Source: Trichodesmium erythraeum IMS101 (GTDB taxonomy: Bacteria > Cyanobacteriota > Cyanobacteriia > Cyanobacteriales > Microcoleaceae). Taken from it: a stretch of DNA of 32,000 bases. This document shows positions 2,236 through 28,854 of this stretch, one piece after another. A program made the position numbers and the translations under genes. The stretch's first letter is position 1. The number at the start of each line of letters is the position of its first letter. The DNA lies in contig NC_008312.1 in the NCBI RefSeq assembly GCF_000014265.1, positions 2,100,001 through 2,132,000 of the forward strand. Reading direction: 5' to 3'. The notes beneath the pieces are model-generated. The model did no database searches. It worked only from the letters and a program-made list of their open reading frames with translations, and had not been told where the DNA came from.

Positions 2236-4170
2236 ATGACACAAATAGCACCATTAGGTTCTTGGAACTCTCCCATAACTACTGACTTAATTCTATCCGG
2301 GGCAATTGGACTTAGTAGTATCACCATTGATGGTAATAATGTTTACTGGATTGAAGGACGACCTTCAGAGGGTGGACGAAATGTAATTGTGCGCTATACT
2401 CCAGATGGAAAGACAACTGATATTACTCCTTCACCTTTTAATGTACGCACCCGCGTCCATGAATACGGCGGTGGATCCTTCTTAGTGGCAGATGATACGA
2501 TATATTTTTCTAATTTCAAGGACCAACGTCTTTATCGCCAAACACCAGGTACAGAACCTCAACCTTTAACCCCATCAGCAGACCTACGTTATGCTGATGC
2601 AGTAATAGATAAACAGCGCGATCGCCTAATTTGTGTTCAAGAAGATCATACAAAGGATGGGGAGCCTACTAATAGGATAGTTAGCATTAACCTCAAAAAT
2701 GGAGAAGATATCCAGGTATTAGCAGAGGGTTATGATTTTTATGCCTCACCACGTTTAAGTCCTGATGGTTCCACGCTTTGCTGGATTAGTTGGAATCATC
2801 CAAATATGCCTTGGGATGGTACAGAGTTATGGGTGGCTCAGGTGAATACAGATGGTTTATTAGATGAAAATAAGTTCGTGGCTGGAGGAAAAGAAGAATC
2901 AATTTTTCAACCCCAGTGGTCACCAGATGGAATGTTATGTTTTGTGAGCGATCGCTCTTTATGGTGGAATATTTATCAAGTTTCAGGAATTACTGACAAG
3001 GTAAATTTAGATATATTGTATTCTTTAAATGCTGAGTTTGGAGTGCCACAATGGTTATTTGGAATGTCTACTTATACATTTACAGAAGCTAACAAAATCC
3101 TCTGCACTTTTTCTCAAAATGGAATTTGTAATTTGGCAACTATTGATACTACTAAAAAACATCTACAGAAAATAGAAATACCATTCACTTCTATTAGTTA
3201 TTTAACAGCAAAAAATAACAAAGTTTGTTTTTTGGGAAGTTCCCCCACAGAAGCTAGTTCAATTATACAAATAAATCTATCTACAGGTGATATTAATATT
3301 TTAAAACGTTCTACAGATTTAAAAATTGATTCTGGTTATTTATCTATTCCTAAAACAATAGAATTTCCTACAGAAAATGGTAAGACTGCTTATGGTTTAT
3401 TTTACCCGCCGACTAACAAAGATTACACAGAACCTTTAGGAGAAAAACCACCTCTTTTAGTTAAAAGTCATGGTGGTCCAACAGCAGCAACTTCTGGTAG
3501 TTTAAGCTTAAAAATTCAATATTGGACAAGTCGTGGTTTTGCTTTACTTGATGTTAATTATGGAGGTAGTACTGGATATGGAAGAGAGTATCGGCAAAGA
3601 CTCAAAAATAGTTGGGGTATTGTTGATGTTGATGATTGTGTAAATGGAGCTCAATATTTAGCTAAACAGGGATTAGTAGATAGTAATCGCATGGCTATTT
3701 CTGGTGGTAGTGCTGGAGGTTATACTACTTTATGTGCCTTAACTTTTAAGGATGTATTTAAAGCAGGAGCAAGTTATTATGGAGTTAGTGATTTAGAGGC
3801 TTTAGCAACAGATACTCATAAGTTTGAATCCCGTTATTTAGATGGATTAATAGGACCTTATCCTGAGAAAAAAGAGATTTATAAACAGCGATCGCCAATT
3901 AATTTTACTGAGAGTTTGTCTTGCCCTGTAATTTTTTTCCAAGGATTAGAAGATAAAATTGTACCACCAAATCAAGCAGAGAAAATGGTAGAAGTTTTAC
4001 AGAAAAAAGGATTGCCAGTGGCTTATGTTGCTTTTGAAGGAGAACAACATGGTTTTCGTAGTTCCGAGAATATTAAACGTGCTTTGGATGGAGAATTTTA
4101 CTTTTACTCTCGTGTATTTGGATTTACACCTGCTGATAATTTAGAGGAGCTAGAAATTATGAATCTTTAG
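2236..4170 (+). CDS. S9-family serine peptidase (prolyl oligopeptidase / acylaminoacyl-peptidase type)
   Basis: 644-aa ORF. A long N-terminal propeller-like region is followed by an alpha/beta-hydrolase domain with nucleophile elbow GGSAGGY, an acid residue in QGLEDKIVPP and a His in EGEQHGF. Confidence 0.9.
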   Translation: MTQIAPLGSWNSPITTDLILSGAIGLSSITIDGNNVYWIEGRPSEGGRNVIVRYTPDGKTTDITPSPFNVRTRVHEYGGGSFLVADDTIYFSNFKDQRLYRQTPGTEPQPLTPSADLRYADAVIDKQRDRLICVQEDHTKDGEPTNRIVSINLKNGEDIQVLAEGYDFYASPRLSPDGSTLCWISWNHPNMPWDGTELWVAQVNTDGLLDENKFVAGGKEESIFQPQWSPDGMLCFVSDRSLWWNIYQVSGITDKVNLDILYSLNAEFGVPQWLFGMSTYTFTEANKILCTFSQNGICNLATIDTTKKHLQKIEIPFTSISYLTAKNNKVCFLGSSPTEASSIIQINLSTGDINILKRSTDLKIDSGYLSIPKTIEFPTENGKTAYGLFYPPTNKDYTEPLGEKPPLLVKSHGGPTAATSGSLSLKIQYWTSRGFALLDVNYGGSTGYGREYRQRLKNSWGIVDVDDCVNGAQYLAKQGLVDSNRMAISGGSAGGYTTLCALTFKDVFKAGASYYGVSDLEALATDTHKFESRYLDGLIGPYPEKKEIYKQRSPINFTESLSCPVIFFQGLEDKIVPPNQAEKMVEVLQKKGLPVAYVAFEGEQHGFRSSENIKRALDGEFYFYSRVFGFTPADNLEELEIMNL

Positions 4171-4827: not shown

Positions 4828-6021
4828 ATGTTCCAAAAATTTCTCTTAATAACAGTAATTTCTAACTTCATAATATGGATATACTTATTAATATTTCGCG
4901 GTAATTTTTGGCTGGCAAACCAACAACTATTATCAAAATCAAAAACAAAAATTGAGAATACGGAAAATTTGCCATCAATTTATGTGATAATTCCTGCTAG
5001 AAATGAAGAAAAATTACTAAAAATTACCCTAAATTCTTTATTAAATCAAGATTATTCAGGGATATTAAAAATAATATTAGTAGATGATCACAGTAAAGAT
5101 AATACAATCAATATAGCGAATTCTTTGGCTCAACAAGGTCATAATTCTACAAAGCTAGAAGTTATTTCAGCAGCAGATTTACCTAGTAATTGGACAGGAA
5201 AACTATGGGCAATTAATGAAGGAATTAACTATGCAAAAAAACAAACTCCAGCCCCAGATTATTTTCTATTAACAGATGCAGATATTGAACATTTCCCTAC
5301 TAATATTCGCCAACTTGTTGTCAAAGCAGAACAAGAAAATTTAGCCTTAGTTTCTTTAATGGTAAAACTACAATGCGAAACAATAGCCGAGAAATTAATG
5401 ATTCCCGCATTTGTATTTTTCTTTCAAAAGTTATATCCATTTAAATGGGTAAATAATCCCCAAAATACTACTGCAGCTGCTGCTGGAGGTTGCATATTAG
5501 TTCGTCATAAAAATTTAGATCAAGTTGGAGGAATAGAGGTTATTAAAAATGCTTTAATAGATGATTGTAATTTAGCTAAAATAGTTAAACAAAAATCCAC
5601 AAATAAAAATATCTGGTTAGGGCTAACTAATGATACGAAAAGCCGACGTTCTTATCCTGATTTAATGAGTATTTGGAATATGGTAGCTCGTACTGCTTTT
5701 ACTCAGTTAAATTATTCTCCATTCTTGTTATTAGTAACAGTAATAGGAATGAAATTAGTTTATTTAATTCCCTCATTAGGAATAATTTTGGGAGTTATTT
5801 TTGGTTGGTGGCCAGTAGTAGTGATCGCGATCTTAGCAAGATTATTAATATTTTTAGCTTACTTACCTATTATTAGATTTTATGGACTTTCACCAATATA
5901 TGCCATGAGCTTACCCACTGTTGCTTTGATTTATATATTAATCACAATAGATTCAGCTTGGCGACACTGGCGAGGGCGAGGCGGTTATTGGAAAGGACGA
6001 GTTAATACCAGTATATTCTGA
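4828..6021 (+). CDS. Family 2 glycosyltransferase, membrane-anchored (hopene-associated HpnB-like)
   Basis: 397-aa ORF with an N-terminal TM helix. GT2 core motifs are IIPARNEE, LLNQDY, LVDDHSKDNT, WTGKLWA and LTDADIEH. PAFVFFFQKLYPFKWVN..AAAAGGCILVR and C-terminal TM helices follow. The HpnB resemblance is from memory only. Confidence 0.85.
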   Translation: MFQKFLLITVISNFIIWIYLLIFRGNFWLANQQLLSKSKTKIENTENLPSIYVIIPARNEEKLLKITLNSLLNQDYSGILKIILVDDHSKDNTINIANSLAQQGHNSTKLEVISAADLPSNWTGKLWAINEGINYAKKQTPAPDYFLLTDADIEHFPTNIRQLVVKAEQENLALVSLMVKLQCETIAEKLMIPAFVFFFQKLYPFKWVNNPQNTTAAAAGGCILVRHKNLDQVGGIEVIKNALIDDCNLAKIVKQKSTNKNIWLGLTNDTKSRRSYPDLMSIWNMVARTAFTQLNYSPFLLLVTVIGMKLVYLIPSLGIILGVIFGWWPVVVIAILARLLIFLAYLPIIRFYGLSPIYAMSLPTVALIYILITIDSAWRHWRGRGGYWKGRVNTSIF

Positions 6022-6258
6022 ATAAATTCTATTAAATATAGTGGTATAGGTATAAATAAATTTTAGCAACTAAGTTTATATTATAAAGTCTACTATACTG
6101 ACATTGGTCCTTAATGAAAAGCTTCAGCGGTTAGGCAAAAGAGAGTTTGAATTCGGTTATTTAGGGAACTAATTATACACCAAAAGTGACTCTTATAATC
6201 TAATTCCACTATAATCATTTAGGCTTGATAAGTATAACTATATTAGTATATATAAACT

Positions 6259-9200
6259 TATAGTCATTTTAAATAAGAATTAGACACTCTTTGGCACAAT
6301 AATTACGAATAATTTCATCAAGAGATATGTTGATAGGTGAATACATTCTATCTCTTTATTAATGCATTAAAATCATGTTCTTTGCCATTTAAATGAAGAG
6401 AGTATTTTGGCAAAAATAATAATTGATGATCTCCTGCTTCTACTAATTCTCTAATAACCTTTTTTCTATGAATTGGTTAATTCTCTATAATTAGTACACT
6501 GGGAATTTTTAATGATGGCAATAAATATTCATTTAACTATTGTTTATATCCCACGGCATTTAGGCTGACTTTAAATATAATTGGTACCATTAAATCTTTT
6601 TCTTTTTTTATTCTTCAGGCTACTAAATTTTCTATTTTTCCTCGTTCTTTTTCTGGCTCACTATCAACTTTTTTCATTTTTTTTAACCAGGCATAAATAC
6701 AGTCTTGATTATCTTCAAATTCTAGTTTATAAATCAAGACAAGGCTTTTACTTCCAATTTTTTGATACAATTTCGTAGTTTCTGATAATATTTTATTCTT
6801 TCTTCTCTATTTATTTCTCTATAACGAAGTTGTTTTTTTTGAAGGAAATTTAATTTTTTTAAAACCATAAAATATAGGTGTAGGATTAACTACAAATTTT
6901 TTAGATATGTCTGCTAATGAGCTATTATTTATTTGGTTTTATATCTTTTTCTAATTCTTTCCCATCTAATTTTATTTGACGACTTTTACCTTAGTAGCTT
7001 CCAAATTTGGGGGAGATAACCATCTATATATCGAAGCTATTCCTATCCCAAATATATGAGCTACTTCAGTAAGCAACCAACATTTTCTACAAAATTTATT
7101 ACTGTTTTTCTTAAGTCTAAACTGTAAGACATGATTAAAATTTGGTTTTATATCTTTTTCTAATTCTTTCCCATCTAATTTTATTTGACGACTTTTACCT
7201 TAGTAGCTTCCAAATTTGGGGGAGATAACCATCTATATATCGAAGCTATTCCTATCCCAAATATATGAGCTACTTCAGTAAGCAACCAACATTTTCTACA
7301 AAATTTATTACTGTTTTTCTTAAGTCTAAACTGTAAGACATGATTAAAATTTGGTTTTATATCTTTTTCTAATTCTTTCCCATCTAATTTTATTTGACGA
7401 CTTTTACCTTAGTAGCTTCCAAATTTGGGGGAGATAACCATCTATATATCGAAGCTATTCCTATCCCAAATATATGAGCTACTTCAGTAAGCAACCAACA
7501 TTTTCTACAAAATTTATTACTGTTTTTCTTAAGTCTAAACTGTAAGACATGATTAAAATTTGGTTTTATATCTTTTTCTAATTCTTTCCCATCTAATTTT
7601 ATTTGACGACTTTTACCTTAGTAACTTCCAAATTTGAGGGAGATAACCATCTATATATCGAAGCTATTCCTATCCCAAATATATGAGCTACTTCAGTAAG
7701 CAACCAACATTTTCTACAAAATTTATTACTGTTTTTTTTAAGTCTAAACTGTAAGACATGATTAAAATTTGGTTTTATATCTTTTTCTAATTCTTTCCCA
7801 TCTAATTTTATTTGACGACTTTTACCTTAGTAGCTTCCAAATTTGGGGGAGATAACCATCTATATATCGAAGGTATTCCTATCCCAAATATATGAGCTAC
7901 TTCAGTCAGCAACCAACATTTTCTACAAAATTTATTACTGTTTTTCTTAAGTCTAAACTGTAAGAGATGATTAAAATTTGGTTTTATATCTTTTTATAAT
8001 TCTTTCCCATCTAATTTTATTTGACGACTTTTACCTTAGTAGCTTCCAAATTTGGGGGAGATAACCATCTATATATCGAAGCTATTCCTATCCCAAATAT
8101 ATGAGCTACTTCAGTAAGCAACCAACATTTTCTACAAAATTTATTACTGTTTTTCTTAAGTCTAAACTGTAAGACATGATTAAAATTTGGTTTTATATCT
8201 TTTTCTAATTCTTTCCCATCTAATTTTATTTGACGACTTTTACCTTAGTAACTTCCAAATTTGAGGGAGATAACCATCTATATATCGAAGCTATTCCTAT
8301 CCCAAATATATGAGCTACTTCAGTAAGCAACCAACATTTTCTACAAAATTTATTACTGTTTTTCTTAAGTCTAAACTGTAAAAGATGATTAAAATTTGGT
8401 TTTATATCTTTTTCTAATTCTTTCCCATCTAATTTTATTTGACGACTTTTACCTTAGTAACTTCCAAATTTGGGGGAGATAACCATCTATATATCGAAGG
8501 TATTCCTATCCCAAATATATGAGCTACTTCAGTAAGCAACCAACATTTTCTACAAAATTTATTACTGTTTTTCTTAAGTCTAAACTGTAAGAGATGATTA
8601 AAATTTGGTTTTATATCTTTTTCTAATTCTTTCCCATCTAATTTTATTTGACGACTTTTACCTTAGTAACTTCCAAATTTGGGGGAGATAACCATCTATA
8701 TATCGAAGGTATTCCTATCCCAAATATATGAGCTACTTCAGTAAGCAACCAACATTTTCTACAAAATTTATTACTGTTTTTTTTAAGTCTAAACTGTAAG
8801 ACATGATTAAAATTTGGTTTTATATCTTTTTCTAATTCTTTCCCATCTAATTTTATTTGACAACTTTTACCTTAGTAACTTCCAAATTTGGGGGAGATAA
8901 CCATCTATATATCGAAGCTATTCCTATCCCAAATATATGAGCTGCTTCAGTAAGCAACCAACATTTTCTACAAAATTTATTACTGTTTTTCTTAAGTCTA
9001 AACTGTAAGACATGATTAAAATTTGGTTTTATATCTTTTTCTAATTCTTTCCCATCTAATTTTATTTGACGACTTTTACCTTAGTAACTTCCAAATTTGG
9101 GGGAGATAACCATCTATATATCGAAGCTATTCCTATCCCAAATATATGAGCTACTTCAGTAAGCAACCAACATTTTCTACAAAATTTATTACTGTTTTTC

Positions 9201-9506
9201 TTAAGTCTAAACTGTAAGAGATGATTAAAATTTGGTTTTATATCTTTTTCTAATTCTTTCCCATCTAATTTTATTTGACAACTTTTACCTTAGTAGCTTC
9301 CAAATTTGGGGGATATAACCATCTATATATTGAAGCTATTCCTATCCCAAATATATGAGCTACTTCAGTAAGCAACCAACATTTTCTACAAAATTTATTA
9401 CTGTTTTTCTTAAGTCTAAACTGTAAGGCATGATTAAAAATAGTTTCTAGTTTACTTGATTTTATTCTACTCAATTTTTGTCTCAATCTTAATTAAAACG
9501 ACTATA
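6259..9506 (-). mobile_element. Degenerate IS630-family element, copy A, carrying an internal 209-bp tandem array
   Basis: Imperfect 20-bp terminal inverted repeats TATAGTCATTTTAAATAAGA (6259-6278) and TCTTAATTAAAACGACTATA (9487-9506), with TA at both ends. It is collinear with the 955-bp sister copy at 24131-25085. The minus-strand reading is a stop-riddled IS630-type transposase; the N-terminal fragment is ORF 9271..9486 (...EVAHIFGIGIASIYRWL...). Without the 11 extra repeat units the element would be about 949 bp. Confidence 0.8.
6932..9439. repeat. Tandem repeat, 12 units of 209 bp (5' end of the IS630-type transposase gene)
   Basis: TTTGGTTTTATATC recurs at 6932, 7141, 7350, 7559, 7768, 7977, 8186, 8395, 8604, 8813, 9022 and 9231, a constant 209-bp period. 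Units differ at only a few positions. There is no ORF of 60 aa or more inside the array except the terminal one. Confidence 0.97.
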
Positions 9507-9630
9507 TATCAATAAATTAAGCTCAAATAAGTAATAGTTAAATAGCCCTATTTCCTATTGTAATTTTCACAGTAGAGAAACCTGATCTGAAGTAAAAAAA
9601 TCATTCCTTATACTTACCAAAAAACTAGTT

Positions 9631-10060
9631 TTAAAGCCTCCGCCTTTGAGGATAACTTTTGATTTTGAATATACTTTTTCAGAAGTTTCAAGCGGCACAC
9701 CTCCAACCGAAGCTACAAAATATGATGGGCTTCAAAGCGACGTTTTGTGAGGTTTTCTATATCCTGCTGCTCCATATAATCTACTGAAAAAACCTTTAAG
9801 ATAACTGACTATTTGAGATTAAGACAATTTGGGTGGATATTCAATAAATCCATAAATTTAATCTGTTTTTTTATTAAACCCCAATATCTTAAAGTTCATC
9901 TTTCTAGCTACCATCTCAAAGGAATTTTTAATTAATTCTAAGCCTTCAGCGGCCAATACACTTATCAATTATTAATTAATAACACAGACTAAATGTACTT
10001 TCAAATCTAAGACACTATGTCTTTCACGTTTTAACACAGATGCATGCCAAGAATGACTAT
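9631..10060 (-). pseudogene. tnpA: IS200/IS605 TnpA (Y1 transposase) remnant
   Basis: Minus-strand reading gives LKRERHSVLDLKVHLVCVIN* near 10040-9975 (cf. the HSV..L..HLVFV.KYR motif). Further on it gives IEYPPKLS, SYLKGFFSRL and YFVASVGGVPLETSEKVYSKSK (cf. GYFv.SvG...e.i..YI..Q). Several stops and frame changes interrupt it. Confidence 0.55.
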
Positions 10061-10589
10061 GTTATAATTATAAATTATATGCCAAAAATAAATAAAAGAT
10101 GAGAGCTAAATACAGGTACAGAATATACCCAACTAAATATCAGCTAACCAAGTTATCGTAATTATTTGGTTGTGTTTGCGTAGTCTAGAATGATAGTTTA
10201 GCCTATTGCGTAGAACAGCATAAAAAAGGCCAGAAAAAGCCTAGTAATTCTGAACTGCAAAAAGTATTGATTACCAAAGCTAAAAAGATTAAAGATAGAG
10301 AATGACTAAAGGAAGTTTCTAGTATTCCATTGCAGCAATCATTGAATGACTTAAATACAGCCTATCAAAACTTTTTCAATAGTTGTAAAAGTCATAGGAA
10401 AGGGAAGTCTATGAGACCTCCTAAGTTTAAGTAAAAAAAGTCTAGGCAAACTGCTGGATTGACAAAAGGAGGATTTAAAGTTAGTTAAGATAAAATTTAT
10501 TTAGCTAAAATAGGTAAGCTGAAAGTAGTTTGGTCAAGAAAACTGCCGAGTTTACCTAGCTCAGTAACAATAATCAAAGACTCAGGTAA

Positions 10590-12700
10590 TAGATATCTCC
10601 AAAATAGAAAATAAGGTAAAATTATCAAAACCATTTATGTATACAGTCTCTCAAATGAATCTAACTTTAGAATATATTTATAATCATCCAAAAGAAACAA
10701 AAAGAATTATTGGTATTACTTATAAACAGCTAATAAAATTAATAGAAAATGCTCCAAGAATAGAATCATAAAAAAAGTCGGCGATCGCGAAAACAGAAAA
10801 AGATTAATTAAAATAGGTGGATTCAGAAAAAAGAATTTAACAAAGGAAGAAAAAATAATTTTAACATGATTTTATTTACATCAAATACCAAGTTTTCAAA
10901 CATTAGGAATTGGTGGTCCTGTATATGTAGTGATAAGCCAATATAAATGATTATTTATTGACATTAATCTTGTTGAAAATATTAAGTTTTTTATACTTAA
11001 TAATTCAAAATTATTATCTAGGCGATCGCTACATAATAATCAGTTATCAAACTATCAGGAATTAAGCTCAACTATCATGAAAAAAGTATGCTATTATCTA
11101 TAACAGTAATAAGAAAAAATCTATATAATTCAGATGTCCATTCATAAATTAATCTGTCCTAGTTGTGGCAGTAATCATATTGTCAAAAATGGGACTATTC
11201 ACAACAAAAAACAAAAATATCAATGTCAAAATTGTCTCTGACAATTTGTCGAAAATAGTCAAAGAGATTATATTAGTAATGAAACCCAAGAACTGATTGA
11301 TAAATTAAAATAGAGAAAAAATTAGTTTGGCTGGTATAATCTGTGTAATAGGTGTGTCAGAAAAATGGAACCAGAATTACGTCAATAATAAGTATGCTGA
11401 GGTTTTACGCTCTATTAAATGTACTAAAAAAAACCGGTAAACTCACCATTCAATGTGATGAAATGTGGTCATTTGTAGGCAATAAAAATAATAAACAATG
11501 GCTGTGGTTAGCGATTGATATAGAAACTCAAGAAATTGTGGGTTTTTACTTAGGGGAAAGAGGAGAAAAAGGGGCAGCATAGATTATGGAATTCTAACCC
11601 ACGGTGTCTTAAGGCCGTGTGCAGTTTGTTATACAGATTTTTGGTCAGCTTACGAGCTTGTCTTTCCTGAAGAGAGATATAAATCAGTGGGGAATATTCA
11701 GGTTTAACAGCTTATATAAAAAGATTAAATAATACTTTGTGTCAAAGAATTTCTCGGTTGCTCAGAAAGACTTTATCCTTTTCTAAAAAGCTTCGGTCCC
11801 ATCTAGGAGATATTTGGTATTTCATTAATCATTATAATGAAGCGATCGCTTCACTGTAATTTTATCACTACATATACAGGGCCACCAGGAATTAACTTTG
11901 GTATAAGTGAATCAAGTGCTAATAATATTTTTCATTACTGGATAGATATTCTTAGAGAATTACTGCCAGTAAGTTTATTAGAACAAGTAAAAAAAAAAGA
12001 AAATGAATTGGAATGGGTAAAGGAGATATTAACAGAATTAGAATTAATTGTAGATAGTACAGAACAAGGTAGAGAAAGGCCAAGTGAATATAAAAACCAA
12101 GAAAAATATCAAATATGAAAAAAGAAAAATCATACTTTTAAAAATCAAATAATAACGACACCAAAAGGAACAGAAATAGTGAATTTAATAGTAGAAAAAA
12201 AAGGTTTAGTAAGTGATGTAAAAATATTAAGAAAACAACCGAATAAATTTGATAAACAACAAAAATTTTAAGGATATAAAGCTGATGAAGGATTAGAAAT
12301 AACTACTACACCAAAAAAGAAACCAAGAAAAAAAATGCTACCATAAATCAAAGAAGAAAATCAAGAAAAAGCAAAAAAAAGAATATTTGTAGAACATGTA
12401 ATCAGATTAATTAAAATATTTTGAATTCTTAGAAAAAGATTCAGATTAAAAGATAATAATTCTCGAAAAGTAATTTTAAAAATATATGGTTTATTGCGAC
12501 TAATAATTGGCTAATTTATATTAGTAAAAATCATCAAAAACTGAGATAAAAATAATAAATAAAAGTCTAATAAATATTTGAATTAGTAACACGAAGTATC
12601 TCTGATACCCATAAAAATGTACAAATTAACTATCTTCAAGGTGAGCTAACGCTCCACTAAAAATAGTTAGTATAAGCGTTTGAGTATTTTTGGAGATGTC
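10590..12700 (+). mobile_element. IS5-family (Harbinger-like, DDE_Tnp_4-type) element copy 1, dead, itself interrupted by an IS1
   Basis: Termini are (TA)GATATCTCCAAAA... and ...TTTTGGAGATGTC. It is flanked by a direct repeat of the tnpB target: TAATAGATAT at 10587-10596 and 12701-12710, so the true duplication is 3-10 bp depending on where the terminus is placed. Transposase fragments read MNLTLEYIYNHPKETKRIIGITYKQL... and ...GINFGISESSANNIFHYWIDILRELLPVSLLEQVKK... (ORF 11837..12118), followed by stop-riddled DDE sequence. Confidence 0.65.
10912..11886 (+). mobile_element. IS1-family element copy 1 (dead transposase 11134-11859)
   Basis: 25-bp inverted repeats GGTGGTCCTGTATATGTAGTGATAA (10912-10936) and TTATCACTACATATACAGGGCCACC (11862-11886). 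7-bp direct repeat AGGAATT at 10905-10911 and 11887-11893. The reading MSIHKLICPSCGSNHIVKNGTIHNKKQKYQCQNC.*, ...QCDEMWSFVGNKNNKQWLWLAIDIETQEIVG..., ...LSFSKKLRSHLGDIWYFINHYN is IS1 InsAB-like, with several stops and frameshifts. Confidence 0.8.
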
Positions 12701-13411
12701 TAATAGATATTCCTTAAGCTTTGTTGTAGAAATTCAACCAGAAGTTTGATCTAAAACTGATAACTCAGTAGGTATAAATTTAAGCATCAAAACTTTTGCT
12801 ACATTCAGCAATGGTACAAAAATTGATGCACCAAAACTATTCAAGAAATGAATTAAGAAATATAGACAATTAAGTAAGTTATTATCGCGCTAAAACTAGG
12901 GGTACTAAAACGTGTGAAATAGCTAGGCTGAAGCTAGCTAAATTTCATGTCAAGTTAAAATATACTAGAACTGATTTTCTGCATAAGTTATCTACTCAAA
13001 CAAAATACGAAAACCAAGTAATAGTTTTAGAATACTTAAATGTTTCAGGAATGGTTAAAAACCGTAAATTATCCAGAGCTATTTCAGATTTTGGTTGGAG
13101 ACAATTTAGAATACTTTTAGAGGAAAAGGCAGAAAAATGCGGTAAAGAATTTAGAGTCATTGATAGATGGTAACCGACCTCTCAAGTATGCTCATGTTGT
13201 GGTTTTTGTGGAAGCAAATTAGACCTTTCAGGGGCGAAAATGGGAATGCCTTAGTTGCCGTACAAAACACGACCGTGATACGAATGCAGCAATAAACATA
13301 TTAGTCGCGGGTGGGCAGTCCGAGACATTAAACGGACGTGGAGGCAAGGGTAAGACTACTGCCAAAGTAGCAGGCGCCGATGAAACGTTGACCCACCTTG
13401 AGCTGATATAG

Positions 13412-13490
13412 CTATCTTTATTTGATTGAGATAACTATTAGGTGGATAGGAATAGGAATCTCCGCGCCTTTAGGCCGGAAAGGATGTCAA
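13412..13490 (+). other. IS605-family right end (expected 3' part of the TnpB omega-RNA scaffold)
   Basis: Lies directly after the tnpB stop. GGAATCTCCGCGCCTTTAGGCCGGAAAGGATGTCAA forms an imperfect hairpin and ends in GGATGTCAA, like the second relic in the window. Assignment to an omega/reRNA follows from published TnpB biology, not from expression data. Confidence 0.4.
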
Positions 13491-13588
13491 AAGTAAAACA
13501 ATTACTTTTTTCAGTCTAGAAAAAAGTTCCATAAAGTTTTAGAATGAAGTTTTGTAGATAGTAAAGTTTGAGGTATTAAGAATCAACA

Positions 13589-16189: not shown

Positions 16190-17215
16190 ATGTCTCGTTC
16201 TAAAGCTCTTTATTCTTATATATTAATCCGTTTGCTATTGGCACCACTGATGTTGTGGACAATTAGTACTTTAGTTTTCTTATTATTACGAGCAACTCCT
16301 GGAGACCCTGTAGATGCTATTCTTGGGCCAAAAGCTTCAACGGCAACTAAAGAAGCTCTCCGGTCCCAACTTGGTTTAGATGGTTCACTACTAAAACAGT
16401 ATCTTAACTATCTAGGAAAATTATTTAGTTTTGACTTAGGTACATCAATGACTACTCGTGGTGAGTCAGTTTGGCAAATTATTCAAAATTATTTTCCAGC
16501 TACTTTAGAATTAGCAGTATTTAGTATGGCGATCGCTCTAATTGTTGGGATTACTATTGGGTCTATTGCTGCTTCTCATCCCAATACTCGTTTAGATCTT
16601 GGTGGGCGTTTATTTGGAATTATTACTTATGCAGTTCCACCTTTTTGGGCAGGTATGATTTTACAATTAATTTTTGCAGTACAGTTAAAATGGTTTCCTC
16701 TAGGTACTCGTTTTCCTACTAGTGAAAATCCACCTCCAAGCATTACAGGTTTATACACAATTGATAGTATTTTAAGTGGTAATATCGAGCATTTTTTTAC
16801 ATCTATATATTATTTAGCTTTACCGAGTTTAACTTTAGGAATTTTGCTAAGTGGTATTTTTGAAAGAATCGTAAGAATTAATCTCAAACAAACATTAAAA
16901 GCTGATTATGTCGAAGCTGCTAGAGCAAGAGGTATTTCTGAATTAAGAATATTATTTGCTCATGCTTTGAAAAATGCCATGATTCCAATAATTACGGTTT
17001 TAGGATTAACATTTGCTGCTTTATTAGGAGGAGCAATATTAACAGAAGTAACTTTTTCTTGGCCTGGTTTGGCAAATAGATTATATCAGGCAATTAGTTC
17101 GCGAGATTATCCAACTGTGCAAGGAATAGTCGTATTTTTTGCTGGTATTGTTGTTGTAGCTAGTATTTTTATTGATATTTTAAATGCTTACATAGATCCG
17201 AGAATTAGGTATTAA
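16190..17215 (+). CDS. ABC transporter permease, DppB/OppB (peptide/nickel) type
   Basis: 341-aa ORF. It has the N-terminal RLLLAPLMLW..LVFLLLRATPGDPV motif, several hydrophobic spans, and an EAA-type loop DYVEAARARGISELRILFAHALKNAMIPIITVLGL. No partner permease, ATPase or binding-protein gene lies in the window. Confidence 0.9.
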   Translation: MSRSKALYSYILIRLLLAPLMLWTISTLVFLLLRATPGDPVDAILGPKASTATKEALRSQLGLDGSLLKQYLNYLGKLFSFDLGTSMTTRGESVWQIIQNYFPATLELAVFSMAIALIVGITIGSIAASHPNTRLDLGGRLFGIITYAVPPFWAGMILQLIFAVQLKWFPLGTRFPTSENPPPSITGLYTIDSILSGNIEHFFTSIYYLALPSLTLGILLSGIFERIVRINLKQTLKADYVEAARARGISELRILFAHALKNAMIPIITVLGLTFAALLGGAILTEVTFSWPGLANRLYQAISSRDYPTVQGIVVFFAGIVVVASIFIDILNAYIDPRIRY

Positions 17216-19272: not shown

Positions 19273-19915
19273 AGTTTAATTGAAAAAGTAAAGGAAACTT
19301 TAGATTTATTAAGATTTAGTAGGATATTCTTGCTTTATAGCTATCTTTATTATAGCAATCTAAATTATGGCAACTAGTACAATAGTGATTTTAGGTTTTG
19401 AATAATCATATGGCAATTAGGAATGATTTATTAGAAAGGGTGGGTTATATATTTTATTAAATCATAAATTCAAGTAATTTTATTTTATATTTTTAGTCTG
19501 AAATATAATTATTAATTGCTGTTATTAAATAATATAAGGCTGACAAAATATAAGTTATTATTTTATTAATACATACTTAATAGCTTTTAAGATATAGTTA
19601 AATATTTTCTAGGTTAGCTATGATAAATTACCACAAAATAAATTACGGAAACTTTGCTAGGTAAGAATTATTAGTTAGGATAGCCAAATTTTCTTAAAGT
19701 GATAGAATTGAGAAAAATTTAGCATTACTAAAAAATTTTCAGTTTGCCAAAATTGAACTATAATTAATCCCTTAGGTTTAACTATTTACAATATAGCACT
19801 AGTTAAAATGCTCAAAATGAAAAACTTACTTATAACTAGCAGTTTTTTTTACTTTTACCTTTCAGCTTCTTGTTTAGCAAAAACTCATGAGTTTTCTGAA
19901 TATAATTTAAAAAAA

Positions 19916-20136
19916 TAGGAATTTTGCTAAGTGTTATTTTTGAAAGAATAGTAATAATTAATCTCAAACAAACATTAAAAGCTGATTATGTCGAAGCTGC
20001 TATATCAAGAGGTACTCCTGAATTAAGAATATTATTTCCTCATAGTTTTAAGAATACTATGATTCCAATAATTACGGTTTTGGGCTTAACTTTTGCTGCT
20101 TTATTAGGAGAAGCAATATTAATAAAAGTAACTTTT
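19916..20136 (+). pseudogene. Duplicated 3' fragment of the ABC permease gene, part 1
   Basis: Ungapped alignment to 16836-17056, roughly nine in ten bases identical by eye. ORF 19924..20148 reads ...IFERIVIINLKQTLKADYVEAAISRGTPELRILFPHSFKNTMIPIITVLGLTFAALLGEAIL. The upstream part of the gene is absent, and the fragment is truncated by the IS4 insertion at 20137. Confidence 0.85.
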
Positions 20137-20418
20137 ATCACGGGGTGATAAGCAGCTAAAAAACATTGTTGGATAAGGGTTTAAAGAATAATAAGTGAGG
20201 GTGAAAAATTGACTGATTTTGTGATAAGGGATAATCATTCTTGTTGTTAGTGTGCTTCGCTCACCCACACCACCAACCCCTTTTGATTTATTTTTCAAAT
20301 ATATGAATCTCAGAACATTTATGTAAATCAATTAAAAAATTTGAGCGATCGTCAATTAAAATTTTTAGCCCTGAGATAAATTATCAAAGTTACTTGCATC
20401 TAATTAAATAATTTCTAG

Positions 20419-20873
20419 TTAGGACATAGCTCTTAATCCTCTCCGATAATCAGGCTTTTTCTGAGGATTTAAATTCATAATATTTTCCACAATATCAAAT
20501 AAATAATTCCCAGCAAGCGTCCACAAATAACCATACATACTCACCCAAAAATTACTATTTATTTTATCTTTTCTCTTCGCCTCTGTTAATCTACAAATAT
20601 AGTTTTGAGACTCATATTTTTTGATAAGTCTACCTGGATAAAATGAAGTAGTATAAGCGATTTGAGCAGTAAAATTAAATTAGTCAAACCTTGTACATTG
20701 GCTTTACTTCCTTCTAGATTATATCCACCTGTTTTGCAGTCTTTAAATATCACTTCAATACCCATTCTCGACCGAGAAATTTTGAGAAATTCATCTAAAC
20801 TTTCAATATTTGTCAACAAGTACCAAGGCTCTTTTTCTATCTTTTCTTTATATTTTCGTTTCCAATATATAAC
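20419..20873 (-). pseudogene. IS4-family transposase, C-terminal fragment
   Basis: Minus strand reads ...YWKRKYKEKIEKEPWYLLTNIESLDEFLKISRSRMGIEVIFKDCKTGGYNLEGSKANVQGL... (ORF 20586..20819). After a frameshift it reads ...GWVSMYGYLWTLAGNYLFDIVENIMNLNPQKKPDYRRGLRAMS* with the stop at 20419-20421. Confidence 0.75.
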
Positions 20874-21369
20874 TATAGTAATCCACCCATAGGTCGTAAC
20901 AGATATAATAATAATAATATATCCACTTCACTAGACAAAAAATGAATATTTTAGATGAACTAGACGATTTTATAAATAAAACATGCATAGTCAAAAGAAA
21001 TAAAAAGAGGCAACACATGTCAAAATGATTTTGTCGGGAAAATCCTACCGTGAAATCAAAGAATTATTAAATGTAACTCAGCAGTTTTATTAGTGAATGG
21101 AAAAATCAAGCAATGTTTCATGGTGTATAAAGTTTAAAGCTTCAATTATATTGGAACAACAGGTTACTTAAAAGCTATCGAGAAAGAGCAAATAATTGAG
21201 TGGATGAGAGCACAAGTTTACCTAAGATTATCAGATTTACAAAAATATTTAAAAAAGCAATATGATGTAGTTTTTGAGTCTAATCAAAGTTATTATAACT
21301 TACTCAAAGAAGCGGGAATAACTTGGAAAAAACTCACTCATATAAATCCAGCTAAAAATGATGAATTAG

Positions 21370-22745
21370 CGGGACTTTAGTGAAAAAATAGTAAAAAAAA
21401 GGGTATAATGTATACCTGATATGTATTTTACGTTAATTACTAGCCTGGGAAAAGTTTGATGAAAGAAACAACTTCAGTGGCCATGCCCTCTTGTTTCCAT
21501 CGATGGTGCGATCGCTTTAACAATGTCTTTAAAACAAAAGCCCAAAAAACAGGGTTTAGGGAATATATAGGAGGATTACTCTTGAGAAAGCGATCGAAAA
21601 AACTTGTCTCAAATTGCCAACAACACTGTAGGTCACACGTACCACAAATTACGGCATTTTCTAGTTCGAGCAAATTGGTCTGTAGATGCTGTGAATGAGC
21701 GTCGTCTTCAAGTAATGTGGGAACGTCGCCAAACAAAACCTTCTCGATCCTATTGCTTTAATTATAGACGATTCAGGCCACAGAAAAAGTGGTAATTTTA
21801 CTGCAGGAGTAGGGCGGCAATATATAGGAGAAATAGGAAAAACAGATAATGGTGTAGTCGTGGTGACAACTCATCTTTATGATGGAGTTAAAAGTCTACC
21901 TTTAGACATAGCTTTGTATCAGAAAGCTGATTCTTTTCCAAAAGGAAAAAAAGACCCAGAATTTGTCAAGAAACCAGACGAGTGCAATGTCTCTAGTAGA
22001 TCAATGTTTGTCCAGAGGACACCAACCAGAAATTGTGTTAATTGAAATTTGGCTATGGTAACAATACATCATTCTTAAATCAACTAGAGAAAAGAAGTTT
22101 AACTTATATAGGAGGATTAGCTAAAAATCGAAAAGTCATCATTAAAAAACAAGATGACATTAAAGAGGAAATTAGATTAGACAAGCTGGCAGAAAGTATA
22201 CCTCAGAAAGCTTTCAACTTAGTTCAACTAAGTACAAAAAATGCTAGAGAAGTTTGGGTAGCTACATTAGAAGTAGAAATATCTAGGATGTCAGGTCAAA
22301 AAACTATAGCTATCGTTATGAATGCTAAAAGTTTTTCTGAGGCCACTGATATTAACTATTATATCACTAATAGAGAAGACAAATATGTAACTCCTGAGTG
22401 GATATATTCTACTTATTCTCAAAGAAATTGGGTGGAAGTTTTCTACAGGGAAGCCAAAGGATGGTTAGGATTAAGAGAATATCAAGTCAGAGATAAAATC
22501 AGCCTTAAAAGGCATTTTATTTTAGTATTTTGTGCTTATACATTTATTATCTGGCATCAGTTAACAGGAGGTATAAGAAGGCGTTGGGCTAACAAACCAT
22601 TAAATACGTTTACTGATACTTTAGAAGCATTTCGTACCGCAATATCTTATCGTTTTGTTGAGTGGTTAGATGAAAACATCGACGTATTTACCGCTCATAA
22701 AGAGAGTTTAGGGTTTGTTTGGGCTTGAAATTTGCTAAAGTCCCG
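21370..22745 (+). mobile_element. IS701-family element (transposase frameshifted)
   Basis: Inverted termini CGGGACTTTAGTG (21370-) and GCTAAAGTCCCG (-22745). 4-bp direct repeat TTAG at 21366-21369 and 22746-22749. Removing it restores ...NPAKNDEL/VKAKK... of the host IS630 transposase. Confidence 0.75.
21456..22728 (+). pseudogene. IS701-family DDE transposase, at least three frameshifts
   Basis: ORF-track pieces 21456..21698, 21604..21795, 21860..22045 and 22042..22728 lie in different frames but read as one protein: ...FHRWCDRFNNVFKTKAQKTGFREYIGGLL / SQIANNTVGHTYHKLRHFLVRANWSVDAVNERRLQVM / VVTTHLYDGVKSLPLDIALYQKADSFPKGKKDPEFVKKPD / ...GYGNNTSFLNQLEKRSLTYIGGLAKNRKV...YSQRNWVEVFYREAKGWLGLREYQVRD. 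Confidence 0.8.
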
Positions 22746-24130: not shown

Positions 24131-25085
24131 TATAGTTATTTTAAATAAGAATGAGACACTATCTGGCGCAATAATTACGAATAATTTTATCAAGATATGT
24201 ATTGATAGGTGAATACATTCTAGCTATTTTTAATGCAGTAAAATCATGTTCTTAGTCATTTAAATCAGGAGAGTATTTTGGCAAAAATAGTAATTGGTGA
24301 CCCCCTGCTTCTACTAATTCTCTAATAATGTTTTTTCGTAATTAATGGTGAATTATCCATGCAGCAGTACACTGGGAATTTTTAATGATGGTAATAAATG
24401 TTGATCATATCATTGTTCAAATCCCACGGCATTTAGGGTTTCTTTAAATATAATTGGTGCTATTAAATCTTTTTCCTTTTTTCTTCTCCCGCCTACTAAA
24501 TTTTCTCTTTTACCTCGTTTTCCCTCTTGCTCACCATAAACTTTTTTCCCTTTTTTTGACTAGGAATAAATACAGTCTTGATTATCTTAAAATCCTGATT
24601 TATCAATAAACACAAGGCTTTTACTGCTAATTTTTTTGATAAAATTTCGAGGGAAAGCTGATAATATATTATCCTTTCTTCTCTATTTCTTTCTCTATAA
24701 CGAAGTTGTTTTTTTCAAGGAAAATTAATTATTTTTAAAGCATAAAATATAGCTGGTTGATTAACTCCAATTTTTTTAGATCTGTCTTAAAATGAGCGAC
24801 TCTGGATTTGGTTTTACATCTTTTTCTAATGCTTTCCAATCTAATTTTATTTGACGACTTTTTACCTTAGTTGCTGACAATTTTGGGCGAGATAACCATC
24901 TATATATCGAAGCTATTCCTATCCCAAATGTATGAGCTACTTTGGTAATCGTACCGCCATTTTCTACAAAATTTATGACTTTTTGTCTGAAGTCTAAACT
25001 ATAAGGCATAGTTCAAAATAGTTTCTAGTTGACTTGATTTTATTATACTCAATTTTTTGTTTCAATCTTAATTAAAACGATTATA
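24131..25085 (-). mobile_element. Degenerate IS630-family element, copy B (single-copy sister of copy A)
   Basis: Termini TATAGTTATTTTAAATAAGA (24131-) and ...TCTTAATTAAAACGATTATA (-25085). It is collinear with 6259-6931 plus one 209-bp unit plus 9440-9506. The N-terminal HTH ORF 24776..25009 (MPYSLDFRQKVINFVENGGTITKVAHTFGIGIASIYRWLSRPKL...) is intact, but the DDE part is full of stops. Confidence 0.8.
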
Positions 25086-25396
25086 ATATTAATTTGTCAT
25101 CAAAATCATGCTTATGATTACGGTAAATCTGATTGACAGCCCCATAGCGCTTAACGCCCGCGAAGGCCTTTTCACATATAACTCTCTACTCTACAGGACT
25201 TACGCAAAGACACTATATATAGCGCATGACAATTTCGACGAACTTCACGCTTTGTCACGTGCGTTAGCGGAGCTTTGCGTTAGCAATAGCCTAACTATTT
25301 TTATTCAAAAAACCAATAGTAATTCAAGTCAAATAATACTAATTTCATAAACTTAAGCTACACTTTTAGAAGTAACCTATTATAGAAAATGTCCCC

Positions 25397-25900
25397 ATGT
25401 CAGGAGTAGTAAAAATTGAGATAAATGAATCGGTAGAAACTCTCAAAAAACTTTTAAAAAGTGCGAGTACAGCTCAAGAAAAGGAAAGACTTCAAACTAT
25501 TTACTGGTTGAAAACTCAAACAGTAGAAACAGTAAAAGAAATTGCGATAATGTTAGGACGCAATCGAGTCACAGTACAAAAATGGTTAGGGAAATATCGT
25601 ACAGGTGGACTGAATCTTTTACTAGAACCAAAGAAAAATCTAGGAGGGAGGCCAAGTTCAATTCCACCAAATGTAATCGAGAAATTAGAAGCAGAATTGC
25701 AAAACCCGGAAGGTTTCCAAAGCTATGGTGAAATTCAACAGTGGTTAACGACTTGTTTTGACATCGAGCTGTCTTATCGAACAGTTCATCAATTAGTCAG
25801 ATTTAAATTAAAAAGTAAATTAAAAGTTCCACGTCCAAATCACATAAAACAAAATAAAGAAGCTCAAGAAAACTTTAAAAAAAACTCTCATCTCAACTAG
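25397..25900 (+). CDS. IS630-family transposase ORF1 (HTH / winged-helix DNA-binding part)
   Basis: 167-aa uninterrupted ORF: ...ERLQTIYWLKTQTVETVKEIAIMLGRNRVTVQKWLGKYRTGGLNLLLEPKKNLGGRPSSIP...YRTVHQLVRFKLKSKLKVPRP. It ends just after an A8C run (25877-25885). Confidence 0.75.
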   Translation: MSGVVKIEINESVETLKKLLKSASTAQEKERLQTIYWLKTQTVETVKEIAIMLGRNRVTVQKWLGKYRTGGLNLLLEPKKNLGGRPSSIPPNVIEKLEAELQNPEGFQSYGEIQQWLTTCFDIELSYRTVHQLVRFKLKSKLKVPRPNHIKQNKEAQENFKKNSHLN

Positions 25901-26469
25901 AAGAGAAAATTAAGTTAATTAATAAATATTCGGAAAATCAACTGCCAATTCGCTATTGGTGTCAAGACGAGACTAGAATTGGATTAAAAACTATAACAGG
26001 TAAAGTCATTACTGCTTGCGGTGTTAAGCCCATTGGTTTATATCAATGGCTATTTAAATATCTATGGCTTTATGGTTTAGTAGAACCAAAAACAGGAGAT
26101 TCCTTTTTTTATGAATTTAGTCATCTAGATACTCCTTGCTTTGAAAGATTTTTAGAGCTTTTTTCTCAAACATATCCTGAAGAGATTCATATTATTCAAC
26201 TAGATAACGGGCGAGGGCATCTAGGGAATGATTTATCTATCCCTGATCACATCATTTTATTATTTCAACCTCCTTATTGTCCCGAAGTTAATCCCATTGA
26301 AAGACTGTGGAAAGAGGTGAAAAAATTCTTGAAAAATCGAGTTTTCGATTCCTTAGATTTCTGACGCAGAATCCTGAGAAATATATTAACTGGATTTAGT
26401 CAAAAAGATATTGCTTCTTGTACAGGATATGATTTTATTCTTGAAGCATTATGTGTAGTCGGACTTTAG
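25885..26469 (+). pseudogene. IS630-family transposase ORF2 (DDE domain, -1 frame relative to ORF1) with an internal TGA
   Basis: My translation is ...LSSQLEEKIKLINKYSENQLPIRYWCQDETRIGLKT...IHIIQLDNGRGH...LLFQPPYCPEVNPIERLWKEVKKFLKNRVFDSLDF*RRIL...CVVGL*. DDE residues are recognisable. The in-frame TGA is at 26362-26364 and the final TAG at 26467-26469. Confidence 0.7.
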
Positions 26470-26474
26470 GAAAT

Positions 26475-27660
26475 TGGTATTACCTTCATTTTAATTGAAG
26501 GATATTTCAATTGATCGGTTAGATATTTTGATAATAACCCATGCTTAACTTGATAAATACTTTTGCCTATTTTCGAGGCAAATCTTTTTAACAAGTTTCA
26601 CACGCTTCATTGCACAAGCAATATGGTTTTTCTGAATTATTCGCAGACGACACGCTCCACGCGTCCTAAACCTGTTAATTGCTTAATTTATCGATTGATA
26701 TCTTCGATTTTCCATCGAGTTTGAATCTCAAACTCTACATCTAAAGAGTGATGATTGAGTCAAGTCATTAGTAACAATATATTCTGCCCTGTTGGCAGAC
26801 ACACATAATCCAAAATATTTTTACCTTTTTGCAGAGTGGAAACCCTTTAATTTTAATTATTTTCCCTGATTTTTTTTTCGGCTTCATTCCAATTTAAATC
26901 TTGAACTTTTTTGTATTTTTCTACACCTCGTGTATCATCAACGCGCGCGATTATTTTTTAAAGGGCAGTAGTAAATTTTTCTATCATTATCTATTAATCC
27001 CATTAATCTTTGTGTTGCATACCCAAATCCATTAATACTGTTTTAAATGGTATTTTCTTATTATTTATGGCATTAAATATCATTTCTTCAACACTCTTCT
27101 ATTTTTGTTTTATTGTCAGTATCTGGGTCATAAATCCTATAATCTATAATCCATAATTGTTCATTCCTTGATTAAAATATACACAATTAACTATTCCAAG
27201 ACCCACGAACTTCGCAGCTGATAGAACGCAAACAACTTGATGAACCTATACCACTATATTGTCGTCGTGTAAGCTCAATACTATATCCATATTTTTTATT
27301 AATTACTGTGCCATCAAAAATTAAATAAGCTTCGGTATCACCAAACAAATTCTTCTTTAACATTTCGCCATAAATCTTCTGAATTCAAAGACTAATATCT
27401 TAAATAGCGATTTATTGTATCATGACTAATATTTTCGCTCTGGATTTCCTAAGGAGCGTTATAGTAAAATTTGTGTGGAATTTAAGTAAATATTGACAGT
27501 AGTCAACAAAGTTAAAATTCATATTTTTGAACTAATATAATCATGTCATTATCATCTAGTAATTAAAGATTTTTAGCAAGTTAATTTAACCTAATTGTAA
27601 CCTTGTTTAAAGATACATTAAAAGTAATATCTATCTGGAAAAAAACTAATTATAGTATGG
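26475..27660 (-). pseudogene. IS4/IS701-superfamily DDE transposase remnant (boundaries approximate)
   Basis: Minus-strand reading gives recognisable stretches between many stops: LFGDTEAYLIFDGTVINKKYGYSIELTRRQYSG, IIDYRIYDPDTDNKTKI, KKIPFKTVLMD, RVDDTRGVEKYKKVQDLNWNEAE, KIRWKIE-like, and KHGLLSKYLTDQLKYPSIKMK near the 3' end. Confidence 0.5.
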
Positions 27661-27770
27661 AGAATTTCATGTCGACAGTACGCTATATATAGCGTACCTG
27701 CGTAAGTCCTGCTCTAGATTGACTCAATGTCCGATTTTCGGTATTTTAACGCTCTATAAATGCTTGGACA

Positions 27771-28040
27771 CTATTGATTTAGCCTTCTGGCAGCGCCTTT
27801 TTTTCTCCCAAGGCTGTTTCTAATATAGGCCCAATGATGTGCCTGGCTGCGGTCTATATCAAACAATATACCAGCCAAATCAAAGGTTGGGTAACATTTA
27901 AAGTAGAAGAGAATATAGAATAATTTGTCCTTACTGGTGCGTAAACGAGCCAAAAGGCCTCCTCCAACAGAGCGTTGACGAGGTTTCTCTAGCAACGTTT
28001 GCTCATATATTTGGTGAAAAGACTTCCAACTTGGATTCAA
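27771..28040 (-). pseudogene. N-terminal fragment of the IS5-family (DDE_Tnp_4-type) transposase of copy 2
   Basis: ORF-track 89-aa ORF. The frame is cut near 27720 by the terminal repeat of the IS630 type 3 element, and the central DDE region is missing. Confidence 0.6.
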
Positions 28041-28491
28041 ATGCTTTAGGATTTAATCGGTGTTAATGCTCTTAGTAACCTGTCTTGTTTTAGGTCTTGT
28101 TCAACGTTTAGCATTCTTCTGGCCAATTTATTCTTTGCTCATTCTACCTTATTTCCCAACAACTCTATTGTTTAAAAAGTAACTCATACAATGATAAGAA
28201 TAACATTTTAGTCAGTCTATATCTGTAAGTGGACTGACTTTTTTTTAGCATTAGCATAAATTGTGACTGATGGTCATAGTATTTTGATTGACATAAAAAT
28301 CAACCAAAATTGGGAAAGAAGGGATGGGTTTGCGATATAGCTGCCGCCACCATCCTCCGCCAACGCAAACCAACCCCTTGTCTTAGGAAGAATTATCATT
28401 ATCTGACTCCAAAAATTCATATTTTCAAGCTCACTTTAATCCAATAAACCCTTCTCCAAAAGTGCTTTTGAGCTGTTTGTCACATCTTGAG

Positions 28492-28662
28492 GTAACTTTT
28501 TCTTGACCTGGTTTAGCAAAGTTTAGCAAATAGATTATATTAGGCAATTAGTTTGCGGGATTATCCGATAGTCAGGGGATAGTTGTATTTTTTGCAGGTA
28601 TTATTCTAGTGGCTATTTTTATTGATATTTTAAATGCTTGCATAGATCCGAGAATTAGGTAT
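28492..28662 (+). pseudogene. Duplicated 3' fragment of the ABC permease gene, part 2
   Basis: 28501-28662 aligns with 17057-17212, the end of the intact permease (...IDILNA.IDPRIRY). It contains a 10-bp internal tandem duplication GTTTAGCAAA x2 (28511-28530). The stop codon is mutated (TATTAA becomes TATGTAA). Confidence 0.8.
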
Positions 28663-28854
28663 GTAATGGTCAGTTATCATTTATCTAGCTCCGGCTGAAA
28701 CAGCTTGAAATCCAAATATTGCTTTTCCCCGTCTTAACTCCCTATCTTCCCTACTCTCTAAAACTACTATTAGTAGTAAATATTAAAAAAACTATATTTA
28801 TACTTTTTTTTGTAGAACTTTATCCTTTCTGGTTAGAGTAAACTTTGATATGGA

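Follow-up and report, generated by a model that had tools for sequence, protein, structure and literature searches.

The stretch of DNA analysed here (the window, 32,000 nucleotides, Trichodesmium erythraeum IMS101 genome positions 2,100,001-2,132,000) contains a tandem array of twelve 209-bp units that lies inside a degenerate insertion sequence (IS) of the IS630 family, at genome positions 2,106,931-2,109,439, with Tery_1372 (hpnB) on one side and Tery_1375 on the other. We consider it likely that this is a non-coding, minisatellite-like array without a function of its own, which arose out of an ISY100-like element already dead and has been kept by unequal exchange. No prior description of the 209-bp array was found in the searchable literature; the array is new, but it belongs to a familiar kind, the arrays that tandem duplication has formed in the repeat-rich DNA of Trichodesmium. 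To our knowledge, few bacteria other than those with repeat-rich genomes have non-coding arrays of this size (12 x 209 bp). IMS101 is no shrinking symbiont but a free-living marine diazotroph with a single, finished chromosome of 7,750,108 nt; its DNA is 40% non-coding, with numerous IS elements and with repeats that are expressed, and "repeat-rich" describes the setting better than the "eroding genome" invoked in a preliminary description of this DNA (PMC4143802). Coordinates below are window positions unless marked as genome positions, and those of the principal features are collected in Table 1.

The 209-bp unit and its host element

Tandem Repeats Finder (TRF) delimits the array with a period of 209, 12.0 copies, 98% matches, 0% indels and a score of 4836, and the motif TTTGGTTTTATATC occurs exactly at 12 of the 12 positions listed in the preliminary description, against a chance expectation of 0.08; the head-to-tail arrangement described there is thus borne out. 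The units are numbered U1-U12 and are cut at 209-bp steps, with starts at 6932 + 209*i. In the sense of the transposase gene, which runs on the minus strand, the unit comprises an 8-nt leader (TTTTAATC), the ATG and 198 nt more, giving a coding part of 201 nt or 67 codons. Its frameshift-corrected translation matches positions 1-68 of the HTH_Tnp_IS630 profile (PF01710) with E=1.8e-20, in agreement with the earlier reading of the unit as the leader plus the opening 67 codons of a transposase gene of IS630 type. The unit is 71% A+T. Thirteen of its positions are variable, with a mean pairwise difference of ~3.4 per 209; U1-U3 are identical over 627 bp, the remaining units lie 1-4 sites off the consensus, and ten distinct haplotypes are seen, with every variant motif listed earlier present among the units. 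The preliminary description also placed an ATG in each unit, which does not hold: only eight carry it, and in the other four (U5, U7, U8 and U11) a plus-strand C199G change converts ATG to ATC. The longest stop-free stretches within the array are 38 codons on the plus strand and 75 codons on the minus strand, so that indeed no long open reading frame (ORF) crosses it, and the 34-aa and 71-aa ORFs of the array returned no record in exact-protein look-ups.

A CRISPR array was rejected, as the units abut directly and spacers are absent. The same applies to a diversity-generating retroelement, the 13 variable sites being without adenine bias (C>A, G>A, G>T, C>T, C>G, A>G and A>C), and to a coding repeat protein, every frame having stops.

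Local alignment of the ends of the host element recovered imperfect terminal inverted repeats (TIRs) of ~26 bp (TATAGTCATTTTAAATAAGAATTAGACA / TATAGTCGTTTTAATTAAGATTGAGACA) with TA at both outer ends. Without its 11 extra units the element measures 949 bp, and in BLAST searches this collapsed form is collinear from end to end, with no large gaps, with both a single-copy sister element in the window and copies from Trichodesmium sp. MAG_R02 (81-85% identity over ~950 bp); hence the amplification is a pure internal duplication. The sister is ~85% identical to the host element, and the array unit is ~87-88% identical at the DNA level to other genomic copies of the IS. Frameshift-corrected translations of the family contain HTH_Tnp_IS630 at the N-terminus (E=1.4e-27 in the sister) and DDE_3 (PF13358) in the C-terminal half (E=1.9e-30); this domain combination, together with TIRs flanked by TA, is that of the IS630/Tc1-mariner group. 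An intact transposase is lacking: all frames of the host copy, the sister and four MAG_R02 copies contain stops and frameshifts, and the element is a relic. Alignments and translations therefore agree with the preliminary description in setting the array inside an otherwise collinear, dead IS with its TIRs still present.

The reconstructed transposase has 282 aa, and intact database homologues, with Synechocystis IS630 transposases among the matches, are also exactly 282 aa long. The size of the host element fits that of ISY100 of Synechocystis, which we take to be 947 bp with a 282-aa product. With ISY100 (ISTcSa)-type elements the Trichodesmium copy shares the ~950-bp length, the ~26-bp TIRs, the TA ends and the combination of HTH_Tnp_IS630 and DDE_3, but it differs in being dead and in carrying an 11-unit internal expansion of the 5' coding end. 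We know of no IS630 mechanism that predicts such an expansion. A word-based search of a large protein database found no intact transposase with more than 80% identity, the best intact-length matches lying at 70-80% and none of them being named Trichodesmium; a regulatory RNA thus had no live target within the reach of this search. The sole match in a plasmid collection was a Microcystis IS630 gene at 71%.

Two other observations concern relatives of the element in MAG_R02. On contig L014 (3755-5057) an IS copy of the same family has the segment corresponding to ~46-355 of the sister present twice, and internal duplications may be recurrent in this family. On contig L016 (3116-3848) a tandem repeat of 365 bp x 2.0, with 98% identity, adjoins an IS copy of the same family, which suggests that tandem duplications of several hundred bp are common in Trichodesmium.

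History of the array and its presence in other strains

Comparison with five outgroup copies of the IS revealed two 1-nt deletions common to 12 of 12 units, after unit positions 52 and 144, the second of which throws the gene out of frame near codon 19 and brings in a stop after 23 codons. Given that all the units share both deletions, the death of the transposase gene, and with it of the element, is placed on sequence grounds before the amplification. The later history is recorded in the variants. Six variable sites are shared by at least two units, and 7 of the 15 pairs of these sites fail the four-gamete test; as such pairs show all four combinations, a single branching history without exchange or recurrent mutation is insufficient. 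At position 198, U1-U11 have the derived A and only U12 keeps the ancestral G, as in all outgroup IS copies. Such a pattern, a divergent edge unit (U12) beside homogenised interior units, is what unequal exchange is expected to produce. Both the four-gamete failures and the ancestral G198 of U12 are consistent with the repeated unequal exchange or conversion that the preliminary description had proposed.

In its constant period, high identity with a near-identical interior, variants spread as a mosaic over non-adjacent units, divergent edge unit and collapse in short-read assemblies, the array resembles minisatellite-type repeats under concerted evolution. It differs from minisatellite-type repeats founded by tandem duplication at the founding junction (…GATTAAAA joined to TTTGG…), where one base of microhomology with the flanks is visible. 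Since the microhomology is limited to this one nucleotide, the first duplication appears to have been illegitimate rather than the result of slippage at evident short repeats.

A tandem duplication that is later expanded has been described as a general origin of tandem repeats (bioRxiv 10.64898/2026.02.28.708716). We propose that an ancestor of the T. erythraeum lineages acquired an ISY100-like IS630 element, which entered at a TA 238 bp downstream of hpnB and then decayed. After the two 1-nt deletions had arisen, one illegitimate event would have duplicated the 209-bp segment from -8 to +201 relative to the ATG, and recombination between sister copies or among the multiple copies of the chromosome, by RecA-type unequal exchange and by gene conversion, would have carried the array to ~12 units. 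The same exchange and conversion would homogenise the interior units and leave the edge unit behind. We infer this order of events, the recombination mechanism and the neutrality of the outcome; the anatomy of the array, its variant mosaic and the dead state of the gene ahead of amplification are shown by the sequences, as is the presence of the array in several lineages.

With hpnB as the locus anchor across other strains, exact-protein look-ups using HpnB and a close variant gave many independent assemblies of the locus, although most short-read contigs there end 35-60 bp inside the IS. In T. erythraeum GBRTRLIN201 (L001; GCA_018457135.1, HpnB MBS9773217.1) the contig reads through the IS, one full unit, the junction and 54 nt of a second unit into 100 N, and resumes inside the last unit. 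A second erythraeum lineage, whose flanks are 99.2-99.7% identical to those of IMS101, provides junction evidence from three metagenome assemblies, of which one (L032) has exactly two units and the others (L033 and L036) have the junction and a 100-N gap. A further contig of this lineage (L031) has a single unit and no junction and is probably a collapsed graph path. The unit variants 66A, 106G, 199G and 101T are shared with IMS101 in these contigs, and 50A in L031 only. Because the junction and the unit variants recur in independent assemblies, the array, polymorphisms included, is biological rather than an artefact and is older than the separation of the erythraeum lineages.

The number of units calls for separate treatment. 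It could be that the array exists but that its length in the reference is a product of assembly, the true number differing from 12 or varying among the chromosome copies of a cell, and the short-read assemblies, all of which give one unit, two units or a 100-N gap, would allow this, as would the identity of U1-U3 over a length near that of a Sanger read. We regard this as rather unlikely, given that the junction and unit variants are reproduced independently, that the ten haplotypes give an almost unique tiling path, that indels of the kind produced by assembly noise are absent and that the IMS101 genome is a single finished chromosome. A count of 12 is plausible, as the haplotypes tile near-uniquely and the identical run of U1-U3 is within Sanger read length. 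The assembly artefact that the preliminary description had entertained is thus discarded for the existence of the array and retains some room for its exact copy number.

A unit-internal 34-mer found no second array in one-genome-per-species contigs, where it matched only 7 single IS copies, from Trichodesmium sp. MAG_R02; the IMS101 record did not appear in this search, and uniqueness of the array within IMS101 is only suggested. The junction 24-mer and a unit-internal 43-mer each had 0 matches among JGI metagenome contigs, a collection that lacks this sequence and is uninformative here. One match of the junction 24-mer in IMG/VR (L028) was dismissed as a chance match in AT-rich viral DNA that shares nothing with the window beyond the 24-mer. 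From the right side, contigs anchored on folP all break at ~11,000-12,000, at another repeat. In a Tara metagenome contig from a more divergent lineage (L037), identity to IMS101 is only ~82-87% over the 5' part of hpnB and rises to 96-100% over its 3' part and the spacer behind it, a step that is possibly a recombination breakpoint or the mark of a chimeric contig; this contig has another copy of the same IS family upstream of hpnB.

Together these observations make the array a clean, datable case of the growth of non-coding DNA in Trichodesmium, in which a fragment of a dead IS became a 2.5-kb satellite older than the split of the erythraeum lineages. The array breaks or collapses each short-read assembly at the locus, and given long reads its unit variants could be used to mark strains.

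Function tests and alternative explanations

None of the tests for function points to selection on the unit. A sigma-70 consensus scan of 6000-9800 gave 17 sites against 21.2 in shuffles, and none of these recurs in every unit; the few promoter-like sites inside the array arise from single variants (in U6, U10 and U12). The only consensus-type promoter predicted to be placed so as to read the array in sense is the promoter-like site of the IS itself, upstream of and outside the unit. Searches of the window with Rfam at the gathering threshold and with ARAGORN found no RNA family and no tRNA. The sense RNA of the unit folds with z=-2.45, a modest signal (6 of 200 shuffles fold as well), and the antisense RNA with z=0.17. 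The helical periodicity of AA/TT at 9.5-11.5 bp is not above that of dinucleotide shuffles (p about 0.34), and curved DNA was rejected on this count. Variants in the 34-aa helix-turn-helix (HTH) ORF of the units comprise 5 non-synonymous and 3 synonymous changes. The preliminary description had suggested an RNA, antisense or protein-binding platform made of 12 copies of the translation-initiation region; a translation-initiation, peptide or protein-binding role is weakened by the loss of the ATG from a third of the units, by the ratio of non-synonymous to synonymous variants, and by the failure to find a per-unit promoter, a curvature signal or an intact target.

A comparable array was not known to the preliminary description, but one has been reported in the same genome: at 103,000-110,200 a region of >6 kb consists of seven tandem repeats of 736-973 bp, each with a duplicated 3' part of Tery_0080, and gives rise to the most abundant primary transcript or non-coding RNA of the cell, with 44.7% of the primary reads associated with transcription start sites (Pfreundt et al. 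2014, PMC4143802). The two arrays share their genome, the head-to-tail arrangement and a partial gene duplicate in each unit, and the 7-unit array likewise combines >96% identity between units with a more divergent edge repeat; the 209-bp array differs in its IS-derived unit, which has no detectable promoter of its own. The precedent invites the view that the 209-bp array is also an RNA-producing repeat locus, in which each unit, or one long transcript, would yield RNA of the IS630 5' region in sense or antisense orientation, and this RNA might damp related transposase mRNAs or serve some other end. The 115 intergenic start sites (nTSS) that drive transposase pseudogenes or IS elements in IMS101 (PMC4143802) speak for this view, as do the sense-strand fold, the retention of the array across several lineages and the orientation of the IS promoter-like site towards the array. 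It is nonetheless improbable in our estimation. The units have no promoter-like site each and the IS promoter lies outside them; among the listed top 20/23 IMS101 transcripts, compared by position, none falls at 2.1069-2.1094 Mb (PMC4143802). Moreover, no intact target of the family was found, the best intact-length matches being non-Trichodesmium proteins, the unit is no more than ~87-88% identical to the other copies, and the start-codon region is itself variable. Any transcription of the array would most likely be passive, started at the upstream promoter of the IS or running on from hpnB. A later expression table covers annotated genes only and skips Tery_1373 and Tery_1374 (PMC12090762), and no mention of these two tags was found in the searchable literature.

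A bolder form of this idea, in which the array is a second repeat-RNA locus of Trichodesmium, driven by the IS promoter or by unit-internal promoters that the consensus scan missed, and its 12-copy IS630 5'-end RNA acts in trans or sequesters an HTH protein, seems to us more doubtful still. If true, the array would be the bacterial counterpart of a small-RNA cluster derived from a transposon. Transcription in the manner of the 7-repeat array would also define a class of repeat-derived RNAs in Trichodesmium, one of them from the 5' end of a transposase gene. Antisense RNAs of the IS10 RNA-OUT type target the translation-initiation region of the transposase, which the amplified segment likewise covers; in contrast to that system, neither an outward or antisense promoter nor a live target was found for the unit, and its ATG region is mutated in four copies. 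Antisense control of a transposase is not supported, as the word-based search found no live target, the best intact-length homologues having 70-80% protein identity and the genomic copies, at ~87-88% DNA identity, being degenerate.

A structural or protein-binding DNA platform, offering 12 phased sites to a nucleoid protein or to an IS630 HTH protein, draws its sole support from the regular spacing and the A+T content of the units, and we consider it highly improbable. IS630/Tc1 transposases bind terminal inverted repeats, which here lie outside the unit; a helical-phase A-tract signal is absent, and the variants are scattered across the unit without leaving a protected core.

Several points weigh against a functionless array kept by unequal exchange. 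The 1-nt microhomology at the junction is unlike the typical microhomology-mediated route and leaves the founding event unexplained; the copy number of 12 has the finished IMS101 genome as its single source, every short-read assembly collapsing the array; the array has lasted, together with its polymorphisms, in two or more erythraeum lineages, which fits neutrality but also retention; the sense-strand fold is somewhat more stable than that of shuffled sequences; and neutrality is argued from missing signals. In light of the tests above, which gave no signals of selection or function, the neutral satellite is still the best fit among the three options that the preliminary description had set out.

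Coordinates and other features of the window

The window contains further proteins identical to IMS101 records, namely ABG50682.1 (S9 peptidase), ABG50688.1 (FolP) and ABG50690.1 (amine oxidase), in addition to the flanking HpnB.

Table 1. Principal features of the locus, in window positions unless marked genome
Feature	Position	Strand	Description	Basis
Tery_1371	2236-4170 (genome 2,102,236-2,104,170)			published expression table
hpnB (Tery_1372, ABG50683.1)	4828..6021 (genome 2,104,828-2,106,021)	+	flanking gene, HpnB-type glycosyltransferase	NCBIfam TIGR03469, exact-protein look-ups; published expression table
Host element	6259..9506	-	degenerate ISY100-like IS630-family IS, 3248 bp	alignments to family copies, three-frame translations
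Left TIR	6259..6286		TA at outer start; 3' end in transposase orientation	alignment of element ends
Tandem array	6931..9439	-	12 x 209 bp + 1 nt	TRF, motif positions, unit table, Pfam PF01710
Edge unit U12	9231..9439	-	abuts IS 5' untranslated region; most divergent, 4 differences from consensus	
Promoter-like site of IS	9459..9486	-	TTGAGA-16 nt-TAAAAT, predicted	consensus scan
Right TIR	9479..9506		TA at outer end; 5' end in transposase orientation	alignment of element ends
Single-copy sister element	24131..25086 (approx.)	-	same IS family, degenerate, in frame through first ~70 codons; outgroup	

Other debris of insertion sequences in the window consists of a C-terminal fragment of IS701, an N-terminal fragment of a different IS630 subfamily (HTH_32/HTH_33) and an IS605-type fragment annotated as Tery_1379 (grouped coordinates 22042-22728, 25397-25900 and about 13051-13173). 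A ~975-bp element at 10912-11886, with Tery_1375 inside it, is bounded by inverted repeats of ~25 bp (GGTGGTCCTGTATATGTAGTGATAA and its reverse complement). IMS101 has this element, the otherwise collinear ALOHA-lineage contig L031 lacks it, and short-read contigs break there. It is probably a miniature inverted-repeat transposable element (MITE) or small IS insertion polymorphism. ORFs of at least 80 aa are absent from ~9500-13500, 19300-21400 and 26000-30000, except for one of 93 aa at 11837-12118 and one of 89 aa at 27771-28040.

On the minus strand, the DUF3326 gene (569-1057 and 1115-1636) is split into parts of 162 and 173 aa in IMS101 and GBRTRLIN201 and is intact, with 355 aa, in T. 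erythraeum 21-75 and the ALOHA_ZT_67 lineage, a pattern suggestive of pseudogenisation in particular strains. Two additional, incomplete copies of the 3' end of Tery_1382, an ABC permease gene, lie scattered in the window, with 91% and 89% identity (16836-17056 versus 19916-20136, and 17151-17212 versus 28601-28662); at the first copy a 74-aa BPD_transp_1 ORF is called in other assemblies. These 3' fragments recall the duplicated Tery_0080 3' fragments of the 7-repeat array.

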